Translations under genes and position numbers: made by a program
Virus record (IMG/VR): IMGVR_UViG_2974787780_000001
Length of the DNA stretch: 31,809 nt
DNA from: a virus
Lineage: Duplodnaviria; Heunggongvirae; Uroviricota; Caudoviricetes; Peduoviridae
Reading direction: 5' to 3' (one strand)
The notes under the pieces: model-generated
The model's input: only the letters and a program-made list of their open reading frames with translations
What the model was told of the DNA's origin: nothing
The model's database searches: none
Shown: positions 27,496 to 30,237 of the stretch, one piece after another
How the letters are laid out: the number at the start of each line of letters is the position of its first letter
Numbering within the stretch: the first letter of the stretch is position 1

Positions 27496-27500
27496 GGTCG

Positions 27501-27520
27501 ATGTGGACGCTATGTGGACA
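27501..27520 (+). repeat. Direct repeat pair ATGTGGAC (11-bp period); candidate integrase arm-type sites
   Basis: TGTGGACG at 27502-27509 and TGTGGACA at 27513-27520. Confidence 0.5.
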
Positions 27521-27575
27521 GTGGTTGACATAAATCCATTTATATCATCAGGTTAGGTGCTTTTTTGTGACACCA

Positions 27576-27602
27576 TCCCTGTCTTCCCCCACATGATGTG
27601 GG
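27576..27602 (+). terminator. Hairpin plus T8 (terminator-like) inside attP-like region
   Basis: CCCCCACAT-G-ATGTGGGGG followed by TTTTTTTT. Confidence 0.55.
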
Positions 27603-27697
27603 GGTTTTTTTTATCAATCACTTACATTGGTTCCCTTAAGAAAACAGCAACTTAAGAAAACCTATAAGGGACTGGAAGGGCTACAAAGTTCTTCGAG

Positions 27698-27716
27698 TGT
27701 GGACACAATGTGGACA
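27698..27716 (+). repeat. Second direct repeat pair TGTGGACA (11-bp period); candidate integrase arm-type sites
   Basis: TGTGGACA at 27698-27705 and 27709-27716, same orientation as the 27502-27520 pair. Confidence 0.5.
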
Positions 27717-27736
27717 CTCGGCAAGGATCTGATGCT

Positions 27737-28141
27737 TCAGTCGAGCAGGTCGATTTCCTTGATTTTTTGTACTGCACTAACCAATTCGTCAGGAGTGTAG
27801 TTAGTCGCATCAAGCTCTTTTACTTTTCCATCATCAAAAACAACGCGTAGCTTTTTGCCTCGTTGTAGATATGCACCAAAGACCCCAGCGACAGCGCCGA
27901 ATGCTGCAGTAGCAAATGGAAGAACTATGTTTAAGTATTCGGTTGTGCCGGCACCAAAACATATTGGCCCTCGTTGATATGCTATGGCAGCAGTGTCAAG
28001 CTCTTTGGCTAAACCAGCAATATTGCGTCCACTGGCCCTGCAATGGATTTTTCTTATGGAACTATTTGTCATCTCTTCAAAAATTCCTCTGTGTAAACGC
28101 ATTAAACTGGTCATCTCACTTTTTAAAGGTGTTATGACCAT
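27737..28141 (-). CDS. Hypothetical single-pass membrane protein (cargo gene between attP-like region and int)
   Basis: 134-aa ORF co-oriented with int and C; hydrophobic Gly/Ala-rich segment LNIVLPFATAAFGAVAGVFGAYL; AT-rich; start codon ambiguous (candidate ATGs at Met1, Met10, Met14, Met24 of the track ORF). Confidence 0.45.
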   Translation of the reverse strand: MVITPLKSEMTSLMRLHRGIFEEMTNSSIRKIHCRASGRNIAGLAKELDTAAIAYQRGPICFGAGTTEYLNIVLPFATAAFGAVAGVFGAYLQRGKKLRVVFDDGKVKELDATNYTPDELVSAVQKIKEIDLLD

Positions 28142-28292
28142 CCTCTGTGGTTACAACTGGTCGCTTAAGTTCATACCTGCCGAGAAAGCACAGGTTGATG
28201 GATTAAGCTTTGACGTCTATCAGGACGATGTTACATCGCAAGATGTGCTTATCGTCCTAGTTGATAATAAACGAACTATGTTGCCTGAATAA

Positions 28293-29306
28293 TTATCGAA
28301 TCGTTAAACCACCCTTTAGTGGGTTTAACGCTACTGCGTTTTGCAGGTAATCAGGCGCAAGGTGCGCATAGGCCATCGTCTGCTGAATGCTCGCATGCCC
28401 CAGAATCTGTTGCAGTGCAATTATGTTGCCCCCATTCATCATGAAATGACTTGCGAATGTATGTCGCAGGATATGGGTTGCCTGATTGGGTGGTATATCA
28501 GGTTTCACTCTGCGTAAAATCCCGCAAAACTTCTCATAATCAACTTTGAATAATTTGGCACTGGCCTCCTCTTTAACTTTTTTCTCCAGTTCCTTAGAAA
28601 TCGGCACGGTTCGCTTTTTACCGTTTTTGGTTTTCAGGAAGGTAACCCTGCAATTTGTAATCTGTGCTGGTTTTAGCGTGGCAACTTCCGTCCATCTTCC
28701 TCCAGTGCTCAGACATAAAAGCGCGACAAGTAAGTCATCACCAGCCAAAACATTTAACAGTTTTTCGATTTCTGCTTTTTCCAGGAACGTCATTTCAGGG
28801 TTGGCCTCCGTCAGTGGCGGCAGTCCGTGAATTGGGTGTTGCCCGGAAAATTCATCCAGTTGAATTAATTTTGTGAACATGCCGGATAATCGGTATATGT
28901 CACGATTTATCGTTGCAGCACTGATGCCATCACGTAGTCGCATGGAGCGATAATCCATCAAAGCCCTTTTGTTCATCCGGCTCACAGGTATATCACCTAT
29001 ACCGCTGATGGTTTTGAGCAGATGATTAAACTCTTTTGTCCCATGCTCGTGGTTTTGCCCGTGATATTTCCACCAGATGTCGAGCAATTCTGTCAAAGTT
29101 CGGCGGTCTGCTCGCTGGCCTGCCCATTCTTTCTGACTGGCATTGGCGATTGTGTATCGCTCAAATGCTACAGCCTCAGCTTTTCTTTCAAACTTCCTGC
29201 GGATGCGTTTTCCGTCGCGACCGCGAGGTCTAATGTCCACTTCATAGCGTCCATCATCGAGCTTCTTAATTGACATAAGAAAGCCCTCTGACGCTGTATT
29301 CACCAT
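28293..29306 (-). CDS. int: Tyrosine integrase
   Basis: 337-aa ORF (P2 Int length) with C-terminal catalytic region HILRHTFASH...GHASIQQTMAYAHL (H-x-x-R and Tyr nucleophile). Confidence 0.92.
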   Translation of the reverse strand: MVNTASEGFLMSIKKLDDGRYEVDIRPRGRDGKRIRRKFERKAEAVAFERYTIANASQKEWAGQRADRRTLTELLDIWWKYHGQNHEHGTKEFNHLLKTISGIGDIPVSRMNKRALMDYRSMRLRDGISAATINRDIYRLSGMFTKLIQLDEFSGQHPIHGLPPLTEANPEMTFLEKAEIEKLLNVLAGDDLLVALLCLSTGGRWTEVATLKPAQITNCRVTFLKTKNGKKRTVPISKELEKKVKEEASAKLFKVDYEKFCGILRRVKPDIPPNQATHILRHTFASHFMMNGGNIIALQQILGHASIQQTMAYAHLAPDYLQNAVALNPLKGGLTIR

Positions 29307-29345
29307 CTTGGTAACAAATGGTGAAAATGTAATGTTTATAGAGTG

Positions 29346-29639
29346 TTAACCAGTCTGTTTCCCGGAGTGGTCTGATTCTGTTGGTTTTTGCCCAATGTGT
29401 GCGAGAGCCGGCGCGATCTGACCAGCTTGTGGTGACGTATCACCAGTCATTAACCAGAGCGTATATTTTTTAAATAAAGGTGTATTTGTGACTCGCATCA
29501 CGATGCTGAGACCTGGGTCTTTATGCCCACTTTCGTAATTTTTGACTGTTCCTAGAGCTATCCCGCTAATTTCGCTGAATTTAGCCTGTGTTAAGCCTTC
29601 TGCTTTCCTAATCGCTTTCAGTTTTTCGAATGTCTGCAT
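29346..29639 (-). CDS. C: Immunity repressor C (helix-turn-helix)
   Basis: 97-aa ORF upstream of int on same strand; HTH LTQAKFSEISGIALGTVKNYESG; C-terminal ...KYTLWLMTG...GQIAPALAHIGQ resembles my recollection of P2 C. Confidence 0.85.
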   Translation of the reverse strand: MQTFEKLKAIRKAEGLTQAKFSEISGIALGTVKNYESGHKDPGLSIVMRVTNTPLFKKYTLWLMTGDTSPQAGQIAPALAHIGQKPTESDHSGKQTG

Positions 29640-29791
29640 TTGACAGTAACCTATTGGTGACTTATATTTCCGTCAAAAGGTTGTGAATTGGTGACCTTTT
29701 GAGTGTGTTAGCCAGTCCCTAGAAAGGACAGGGGCGACCTAGAAGGGACTGGATCTAATAAGGGTAACACGAAAGCAAAAAGGGCTAATCA
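29640..29791. promoter_or_regulatory. Immunity switch region (divergent Pc/Pe promoters with operator-like repeats)
   Basis: Direct repeats ATTGGTGAC at 29653-29661 and 29687-29695 flanking a TATATT element; inverted repeat CCAGTCCCT (29712-29720) / AGGGACTGG (29744-29752). Confidence 0.5.
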
Positions 29792-30064
29792 ATGGAAGTC
29801 AATGACTATGTGATTCAGTACCCTATTGATGCGGTACATACGGTTAAGTTTGCAGAGTTACTTGGTAAGCCAGAAACGGCTGTAGTCAAGATGGTAAAAG
29901 AGAATAAATTGCCAGTTATTGAGCTTCGTGATCCAAGTAAGCCGAACGCTCGTGTCGGTGAGAAGTGGGTTTTCATTCCTGAGTTTAATCGCGCTGTACG
30001 TGAGGCGTTTTATAACCGACCGGTTGAACAGCGTGATGCATGGCTTTTGTGGATGGGGTTGTGA
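29792..30064 (+). CDS. cox: Cox-like excisionase/transcriptional regulator
   Basis: 90-aa ORF, first gene of rightward early operon divergent from C; Cox-like size; motif KLPVIELRDP resembles P2 Cox as I recall it. Confidence 0.8.
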   Translation: MEVNDYVIQYPIDAVHTVKFAELLGKPETAVVKMVKENKLPVIELRDPSKPNARVGEKWVFIPEFNRAVREAFYNRPVEQRDAWLLWMGL

Positions 30065-30066
30065 TT

Positions 30067-30237
30067 ATGAATGAGCCGCGTTGTATTGCTCAGTTACTGC
30101 GTAACGAAAGCCCCAGGGCGATTGACTTCACCATCACCCACGGGAAGGGTCGCAAGGGAATCATTATCCGCACCAAAAAACAGAGTCCGTTAAAAAAGGC
30201 TCTGACCTTTCTGAAAAGCCGGAGGGTCTGGAAATGA
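30067..30237 (+). CDS. Small early protein (P2 orf78-position)
   Basis: ORF track 30040..30237; ATG at 30067 follows cox stop with GGGG purine tract upstream; 56 aa, basic. Confidence 0.5.
   Translation: MNEPRCIAQLLRNESPRAIDFTITHGKGRKGIIIRTKKQSPLKKALTFLKSRRVWK

Follow-up and report, generated by a model that had tools for sequence, protein, structure and literature searches.

What kind of immunity switch lies between the divergent C and cox genes of this Peduoviridae genome, and does the inverted repeat found beside its operators have a role of its own? An earlier sequence-only reading of the 31,809-nucleotide stretch analysed here (IMG/VR record IMGVR_UViG_2974787780_000001, below "the window") had proposed that operator-like direct repeats in the C-cox spacer imply a distinct immunity specificity, and that an inverted repeat further right could be a site for Cox or for a second regulator. 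The genes that frame the question are the following:

29346..29639, minus strand: C immunity repressor gene, an open reading frame of 97 aa with a Pfam HTH_3 match
29792..30064, plus strand: cox gene, an open reading frame of 90 aa with a Pfam Phage_Cox match (9e-24), for a predicted repressor of Pc and excision directionality factor
28293-29306, adjoining C/cox: tyrosine integrase gene with Pfam Int_N and Phage_integrase matches

C and cox are divergent and separated by a spacer of 152 bp, yet their promoters, the early promoter Pe and the lysogenic promoter Pc, stand face-to-face and are thus convergent. At the protein level, C matches the P2 C structures 2L49/2XCJ (E=3e-26) and Cox matches the P2 Cox structure 4LHF (2.5e-20), such that the window holds what is expected of a P2-type switch, namely divergent genes for a short HTH repressor (~100 aa) and a member of the Cox family, beside a tyrosine integrase. 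A 186-type switch would instead have a two-domain CI of ~196 aa acting on inverted-repeat operators, whereas the repressor here has 97 aa, a single HTH and direct repeats.

We evaluated which immunity type this gene arrangement represents. In BLAST comparisons with phage records, the 731-bp C-spacer-cox stretch is 98.4% identical to the WPhi records AJ245959 / NC_005056, 99.7-100% identical to the Yersinia pestis-plated phages vB_YpM_476A, vB_YpM_476B and VB-YPM-18, and ~70% identical to other P2-like (Peduovirus) immunity types. Base by base (191-column alignment), the spacer shares 150 of its 152 positions with WPhi, the differences being 29669 (T for C) and 29686 (A for T), while C shares 96 of 97 residues with WPhi C (sole change E93G, in the C-terminal tail) and Cox shares all 90. 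The same C protein occurs in E. coli prophages of strains M7424 and ETEC1721, and the switch as a whole was found at at least 95% identity in 260 of 5426 complete E. coli genomes. The rule used in the field for an immunity class is C identity of at least 95% together with an alignable spacer, and a prophage with C and spacer two residues off WPhi has already been placed in class III (PMC3448106). By these measures, C lies above the threshold against WPhi C (96/97), and the spacer is alignable, near-identical and equipped with the imperfect 12-nt Cox direct repeat of the WPhi class.

Within the spacer, two promoters can be placed:

29640..29668, plus strand: early promoter Pe, with -35 TTGACA at 29640-45, a 17-nt spacer and -10 TATATT at 29663-68, placed by consensus scan and WPhi annotation
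29756..29792, minus strand: lysogenic promoter Pc (weak), with -35 TTGATT at 29792-29787, -10 TGTTAC at 29769-29764 and a predicted start at ~29756, placed by WPhi annotation

Pe matches the sigma-70 consensus at 11 of 12 positions and is the only promoter-like match returned by the consensus scan of 29300-30100, with its -35 TTGACA directly adjoining the C start codon. The annotated WPhi promoter AJ245959 1757-1793 maps to window positions 29638-29674 (plus strand), and the two Pe sequences are the same except for one base (29669), just past the -10. Pc, which the consensus scan did not pick up, agrees at every position with the WPhi promoter annotated at AJ245959 1875-1911 (complement); its absence from the scan fits the description of Pc in P2 as the weaker promoter (PMC1904263). 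The face-to-face Pe/Pc pair of a P2-type C-cox spacer is hence present, Pe by consensus and Pc by sequence identity with WPhi. From the WPhi annotation and the published 82-nt overlap we infer a Pe transcript start at ~29674-29675, while GenBank annotation and secondary citations point to a Pc start at ~29756, by which a GATC site is found (29752-55). The WPhi Pe and Pc transcripts overlap by 82 nt, with O2 lying 60 nt from the Pc start (PMC1904263); the corresponding distances in the window, 82 nt from the predicted Pe start (~29675) to the predicted Pc start (~29756) and 61 nt from the end of O2 to 29756, agree with those published numbers.

Around the Pe -10, the C operator is predicted to consist of two half-sites:

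29652..29661, plus strand: C operator half-site O1, TATTGGTGAC, the full 10-mer, same as published WPhi O1, between Pe -35 and -10
29686..29695, plus strand: C operator half-site O2, AATTGGTGAC, 34 bp from O1, its first base T>A relative to WPhi TATTGGTGAC

The direct repeats that had drawn attention to the spacer, ATTGGTGAC at 29653-29661 and 29687-29695 (34 from start to start, around TATATT at 29663-29668), are there with the sequence and coordinates first given, and the repeat unit is 10 bp as in WPhi, longer than the 9 bp first noted. The WPhi C operator comprises two direct 10-bp half-sites, with O1 being TATTGGTGAC, that flank the Pe -10 at a centre-to-centre distance of 34 bp, or about three helical turns; these were mapped by mutagenesis, EMSA and SPR, and WPhi C is a dimer that bends DNA (PMC1904263, PMC1904268). 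Against this reference, O1 matches at 10 of 10 positions and O2 at 9 of 10, at a spacing of 34, so the direct repeats correspond to the mutationally defined WPhi O1/O2 and their earlier identification as C half-sites is upheld. Two direct-repeat half-sites at the early promoter, here predicted 9-10-bp sites flanking the -10, are a P2-type arrangement, and the earlier view of P2-type operators with another sequence and spacing is borne out, as P2 itself has GTTTAGAT twice with 22-bp spacing. The P2-class combination of GTTTAGAT twice, 22 bp apart, with its cognate P2 C was not found in the window. As for further half-sites, the nearest candidates, TATTTGTGAC at 29483 and TTGTGGTGAC at 29427, lie within the C gene with 1-2 mismatches and were rejected as operators because the window-wide count of such sites is just modestly above chance (39 vs 24).

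How far the switch departs from characterised ones can then be judged from the pattern of variation within the WPhi class. The half-site core TTGGTGAC is invariant in the class (12 sequences compared plus IMG/VR class variants), whereas positions 1-2 vary among established class prophages: natural variants carry C at O1 position 1 (STYP1, L035), G at O1 position 2 (L007, L008) and G at O2 position 2 (L019). A new immunity specificity, with operators unlike those of every characterised P2-like phage, could be argued from operator sequence and spacing unlike P2 and from the one O2 base absent from WPhi, but this is very improbable given that variability outside the core, the 150 of 152 spacer bases shared with WPhi, a C 99% and a Cox 100% identical, and a C identity and alignable spacer that fit the field's own class definition (PMC3448106). 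The proposed distinct specificity therefore survives in part: it is distinct from P2, because operator sequence and spacing differ, and it is not new, because operators, spacer, C and Cox are those of WPhi, immunity class III. We conclude with high confidence that this P2-like phage carries the known lysis/lysogeny switch of WPhi type (immunity class III), effectively WPhi's own; the switch is an already characterised and ordinary one.

The O2 base that departs from WPhi deserves separate consideration. With a 32-nt probe centred on 29686, the A variant was detected in three Yersinia phage records only and in none of the 5426 complete E. coli genomes; one IMG/VR contig (L032) has it as well. 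Its absence from those genomes and presence in three Y. pestis-plated isolates might suggest that T>A at 29686 weakens repression and yields a clear-plaque or more lytic phenotype in these carriers. We regard this as improbable, however, since a single half-site point mutation leaves WPhi C repression intact in vivo (PMC1904268), the same variant sits in the IMG/VR contig, resident prophages differ from one another at positions 1-2 of O1 and O2, and both C and int are intact. For WPhi, repression in vivo was abolished by mutating both half-sites or by multiple O1 mutations (PMC1904263, PMC1904268). The O2 change is rare and probably neutral: it affects one of the two positions that vary naturally while the core stays constant, and single half-site mutations are tolerated in WPhi.

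Taken as a WPhi-type switch, the region would be expected to work as follows. In the lysogen, dimeric C would bind O1 (between Pe -35 and -10) and O2 (at ~+12 to +21), bend the DNA and shut Pe, with both half-sites presumably needed for repression in vivo. Otherwise the strong Pe (TTGACA-17-TATATT) would fire rightwards into cox, and the weak Pc, ~82 nt downstream, would fire leftwards into C and int, such that the transcripts overlap and transcription from an active Pe would interfere with Pc. Work by Liu and Haggard-Ljungquist in 1999 reportedly found WPhi Pe to be strong and Pc to be weak, and transcription from Pe is said there to interfere with Pc. In practical terms, the phage can be annotated as a member of the WPhi immunity class, and Pe, Pc, O1, O2 and the proposed Cox repeats can be given base-level coordinates; WPhi-type prophages, present in ~5% of complete E. 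coli genomes, should exclude it by immunity. This also matters for any use of the Yersinia pestis-plating phages in diagnostics or biocontrol, given that they carry an intact temperate switch and integrase.

Turning to the right half of the spacer, the putative Cox target is an imperfect direct repeat with a further copy of its motif in attP:

29718..29729, plus strand: direct repeat copy 1, CCTAGAAAGGAC, of the imperfect 12-nt repeat, proposed Cox target
29738..29749, plus strand: direct repeat copy 2, CCTAGAAGGGAC, which grows to the 15-mer CCTAGAAGGGACTGG at 29738-52
27661..27675, plus strand: copy of the Cox-repeat motif in attP, CCTATAAGGGACTGG, matching 29738-52 at 14 of 15 positions

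The repeat reads CCTAGAA[A/G]GGAC, or CCTAGAA(A/G)GGAC(A/T)GG in its 15-nt form (29718-32 and 29738-52), and its copies are 20 bp apart, about two helical turns. According to PMC5009727 (citing Ahlgren-Berg 2009), WPhi Cox recognises a 12-nt direct repeat in the Pe-Pc region. We assigned the target to 29718-29/29738-49 because this is the sole direct repeat of that length in the spacer. Both copies are identical in WPhi, and the exact bases are accordingly best regarded as a putative WPhi-type Cox target. The earlier proposal of the inverted repeat as a Cox site is thus supported in part: it had the region right, but the target named in the literature is the imperfect 12-nt direct repeat (PMC5009727). 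Cox bound to the CCTAGAA(A/G)GGAC repeat, at Pc +8 to +39, would repress Pc, although the exact bases contacted may differ.

Allowing up to 3 mismatches, sites for the 15-mer number three in the whole window against 0.42 expected. The attP copy lies between the Int arm-type repeats TGTGGACA (27500-22 and 27697-718) and is kept in the WPhi attP. In the literature, Cox acts at attP as an excision directionality factor; recombination directionality factors, Cox and Apl among them, recognise direct repeats arranged head-to-tail and spaced by about one helical turn (PMC7498355). A single copy of the same motif in attP fits this dual role, through which Cox would also serve in excision. The right arm of the inverted repeat, AGGGACTGG, is enriched window-wide at up to 1 mismatch (20 vs 4.5 expected); we did not take this as a dispersed site family and attribute it to CTGG-rich coding composition, which the shuffles do not preserve. 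Near this locus, the window also has a 566-bp insertion with a 134-aa open reading frame between attP and int that is absent from WPhi; the reading frame, beside int, had no Pfam, PHROG or PADLOC match.

The remaining question concerns the inverted repeat itself, for which a second, similar element was found at the start of Pe:

29712..29752, no strand assigned: inverted repeat CCAGTCCCT/AGGGACTGG, at Pc +5 to +45 and Pe ~+38 to +78, wholly in the Pe/Pc overlap
29673-81/29694-702, no strand assigned: a second perfect inverted repeat, TCAAAAGGT/ACCTTTTGA, with arms of 9 bp around a 12-nt loop that contains most of O2, at the Pe start

The arms first reported for CCAGTCCCT/AGGGACTGG, 29712-29720 and 29744-29752, are correct: 9 bp, 100% complementary, with 23 nt between them. 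This element is interwoven with the Cox repeat, as the 12-nt direct repeat holds 6 of the 9 nt of the right arm and 3 nt of the left arm; the right arm is the 3' end of repeat copy 2, and the left arm is its inverted copy just upstream of copy 1. The hairpin predicted for 29712-29752 has folding energies of -20.5 kcal/mol (minus strand, z -3.4) and -18.7 kcal/mol (plus strand, z -2.5), while the second inverted repeat folds at -10.7 kcal/mol (plus) and -8.5 (minus), with z -3.2 each, and its AAAGGT-N12-ACCTTT layout recurs in many heteroimmune relatives. For the whole leaders, that of Pc (29756 to 29630, minus strand) is predicted to form two hairpins, which are the two inverted repeats (-35 kcal/mol, z -3.2), whereas that of Pe is not unusually structured as a whole (z -1.35).

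When the 152-bp spacer was shuffled 5000 times with its dinucleotides preserved, a perfect repeat of at least 9 nt arose as a direct repeat in 3.8%, as an inverted repeat in 2.8% and as both in 0.06%. By this measure each repeat alone is just mildly unusual; the case for real elements comes from conservation and from published experiments. An Rfam scan of 29300-30100 (E<=1) returned no family, and a terminator scan found none at either inverted repeat; a terminator or attenuator reading was rejected because no T-run follows either of them. Among the accessible publications on P2-like switches, none describes a hairpin or inverted repeat in the spacer, though the primary WPhi papers may note one.

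To evaluate conservation, we utilized 80 IMG/VR loci with a WPhi-type Cox (73-100% identity). Across the 12 WPhi-class sequences compared, neither arm of the inverted repeat varies, nor does either 12-nt repeat; one IMG/VR variant (L029) has A>G in the right arm together with repeat copy 2. Beyond the class, the relatives' spacers represent many heteroimmune types that follow one layout, CCAGNN, a variable 30-nt interior, NNCTGG, ATC and then the Pc -10, with a constant distance from stem to Pc -10. When 32 trimmed relatives were aligned with MAFFT alone, RNAalifold predicted no pairs, with left arms out of register and sequences end-gapped; because of the out-of-register left arms, we replaced that alignment with a motif-anchored and a covariance-model analysis.

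When the arms were located through their sequence motif, leaving complementarity out of account, the relatives yielded 26 distinct arm haplotypes, in which stem position 4 is G-C (16) or A-T (4), position 5 is C-G (21), T-A (2) or T-G (2), and position 6 is C-G (17), T-A (3), G-C (2) or G-T (1). Pairing at the variable positions reached 0.72, as against 0.28-0.53 with slid partners and 0.64 ± 0.02 in column shuffles (1 of 5000 as high). The covariance model, built with the six outer pairs only, aligned 47 matches (26 distinct), with 94.2% of cells paired vs 89.5% in shuffles (none of 500 as high) and at most 53% in slid controls, and with 10 double-change cells against 2.4 expected (none of 500). 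Three of the six outer pairs show compensatory change among heteroimmune relatives, in an alignment that the covariance model fits to the structure and among sequences that are related. The outer 6 bp of the stem thus appear to be preserved in these relatives through paired substitutions. Because of this conservation and these compensatory changes we think that the stem is under selection, be it through a hairpin near the mRNA 5' end, through a palindrome or inverted Cox contact in the DNA, or through the two together. That the Pc +5 stem has been kept by compensatory changes despite diverged operators and loop is put forward tentatively.

Several explanations compete for this pattern, and they draw on partly the same observations. 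The inverted repeat may act as a 5'-proximal hairpin on the Pc (C-int) mRNA, which would also lie inside the Pe leader, or as an inverted extra Cox contact. As an RNA element, a stem-loop 4 nt from the Pc transcript 5' end would stabilise or regulate the C-int mRNA, with the same hairpin in the Pe leader. This is possible without being probable: the predicted hairpin begins at Pc +5 with -20.5 kcal/mol and z -3.4, its outer pairs change in a compensatory manner (three of six), its distance to the Pc -10 is conserved, and P2 has an inverted repeat of 8 bp, TTTAGTGC/GCACTAAA, that is unrelated in sequence and ends at the putative P2 Pc start. Set against it are wobble pairs that show no strand bias, the lack of a match to an Rfam family, a Pc start placed by annotation, and a right arm that is also constrained as Cox repeat and Pc start region, with a lone copy in attP. 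Wobble or mismatch pairs in the motif-anchored set are compatible with the plus strand in 4 cases and with the minus strand in 2, and because of this absence of strand preference an RNA role is not told apart from a DNA-level palindrome.

At the DNA level, the left arm would be an extra inverted Cox contact, or the palindrome would be bound by a dimeric factor, and the covariation would track protein specificity. The region is the reported Cox target (PMC5009727), and AGGGACTGG is found in repeat copy 2 (plus strand), in the left arm (minus strand) and in attP. We consider this reading doubtful all the same, as directionality factors such as Cox and Apl act on direct repeats in head-to-tail order (PMC7498355), the element named in the literature is a direct repeat and no palindrome, and attP has no left-arm-like copy. 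The simplest account would grant the inverted repeat no function of its own and treat it as a by-product of G+C-rich Cox repeats and shared ancestry. A 9-bp inverted repeat in 2.8% of spacer shuffles is compatible with that, relatedness by itself can lift sequences above shuffle controls where no structure exists, and the plain MAFFT and RNAalifold analysis, with its left arms out of register, gave no consensus pairs. Yet the double changes occur in several spacer contexts (CCAGCC/GGCTGG, CCAACC/GGTTGG, CCAGCG/CGCTGG, CCAGTCCC/GGGACTGG) and slid-partner controls are much lower, which makes a mere by-product unlikely.

We thus hold with moderate confidence that the inverted repeat has a function of its own, as conservation and covariation suggest. 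More speculatively, the inverted repeat in the Pe/Pc overlap could be a conserved structured element of many heteroimmune P2-like switches, possibly along with the second inverted repeat at the Pe start, such that each convergent transcript would begin with a stem-loop. If so, the stem would add an RNA-level (or cruciform/palindrome-level) layer to a switch described via C, Cox and transcriptional interference. While the switch itself teaches nothing new, a conserved Pe/Pc-overlap stem, if functional, would be a modest addition to the convergent-promoter switch model, and together with its Pe-start counterpart it offers a small lead for work on P2-like switches.

Among known systems, the stems may first be set beside the 5'-terminal stabilising stem-loops that E. 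coli mRNAs can carry, such as that of the ompA leader. The likeness would lie in a stable predicted stem-loop at Pc +5 and a further one right at the 5' end of the Pe transcript; the window stem differs in that its DNA doubles as the proposed Cox target, and the likeness itself is drawn by analogy. With 186 CI/Apl, the window shares convergent lytic and lysogenic promoters and a Cox-like protein, Apl in 186, that acts at switch and att on direct repeats about one helical turn apart (PMC7498355), whereas 186 differs in a CI of 196 aa with two domains, inverted repeats and distal operators, and in having CII and a second promoter (PMC1904263).

The likeness to P2 (NC_001895) is closer, with divergent C and cox, face-to-face Pe/Pc, two direct-repeat half-sites flanking the Pe -10, homologous C and Cox proteins, and an inverted repeat in the Pe/Pc overlap beside the Pc start. 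P2 differs, however, in half-sites of 8 bp (GTTTAGAT) 22 bp apart, in a transcript overlap of ~35 nt vs 82 in WPhi (PMC1904263), in a Cox that binds TTAAA(G/C)NC(A/C) boxes (PMC5009727), and in a C ~43% identical to WPhi C (PMC1904263). Closest of all is WPhi (AJ245959 / NC_005056), which has the same order int-C-Pe/Pc-cox, the same O1 and 34-bp spacing, Cox 100% and C 99% identical, and the same imperfect 12-nt direct repeat with a motif copy in attP; the window differs from it by O2 T>A at 29686, T/C at 29669, C E93G and the 566-bp insertion between attP and int.

Within the spacer between the immunity repressor gene C and cox, and in the adjoining C coding region, the following features were located in the window:

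29673-29702, second perfect 9-bp inverted repeat of the spacer, TCAAAAGGT/ACCTTTTGA
29752-29755, GATC (Dam) site, covering positions +2 to +5 of the transcript inferred for the lysogenic promoter Pc
29427-29445, palindrome TGGTGACGTATCACCA, inside the C coding region

The inferred transcript start of the early promoter Pe coincides exactly with the TCAAAAGGT/ACCTTTTGA inverted repeat, whose 12-nt loop and first stem bases together contain O2, one of the two C operator half-sites. Many heteroimmune relatives share this layout as AAAGGT-N12-ACCTTT, with lower-stem bases that differ among them (e.g., CCCG/CGGG, CCTG/CAGG, CCG/CGG). Inside C itself, the TGGTGACGTATCACCA palindrome includes an operator-core-like GGTGAC, and a related site, TATTTGTGAC at 29483, matches the other half-site, O1, at 9/10 positions; we take neither as an operator.

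At the Pc GATC position, nearly all heteroimmune relatives examined keep CTGGATC or TTGGATC. In four IMG/VR loci (L046, L048, L053, L059), the conserved Pc-proximal hairpin element is not immediately ahead of the Cox-like match but upstream of it by ~500-600 nt; the intervening stretch must hold additional DNA or a second cox-like gene.

Outside the switch, two features were located near the integrase gene int:

27661-27675, CCTATAAGGGACTGG, a 14/15 copy of the switch Cox-repeat 15-mer (the presumed Cox target), in the attP region (27500-27726)
27737-28141, minus strand, 134-aa ORF, inside a 566-bp insertion

Int arm repeats flank CCTATAAGGGACTGG on both sides, with AAGGGCT following it by 10 bp and two copies of an 11-nt direct repeat, CTTAAGAAAAC, just upstream. 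The Cox-repeat motif copy is conserved in the attP of WPhi, where the upstream one of the two 11-nt repeats has a single-base difference. Also relative to WPhi, the window carries the 566-bp insertion (27727-28292) between attP and the int 3' end, which among phage records occurs only in three Yersinia phages (vB_YpM_476A, vB_YpM_476B, VB-YPM-18); of 5426 complete E. coli genomes, 12 also have the insertion. Its ORF was without match in Pfam, PHROG and PADLOC.

A further arrangement of the switch is seen in the P37-type immunity class (L009, which is Yersinia phage P37, with L068, L070 and L082), whose spacers possess an inverted rather than direct repeat around the Pe -10 (TTAATGAC ... GTCATTAA), a configuration that would be atypical of C repressors of the P2 type.
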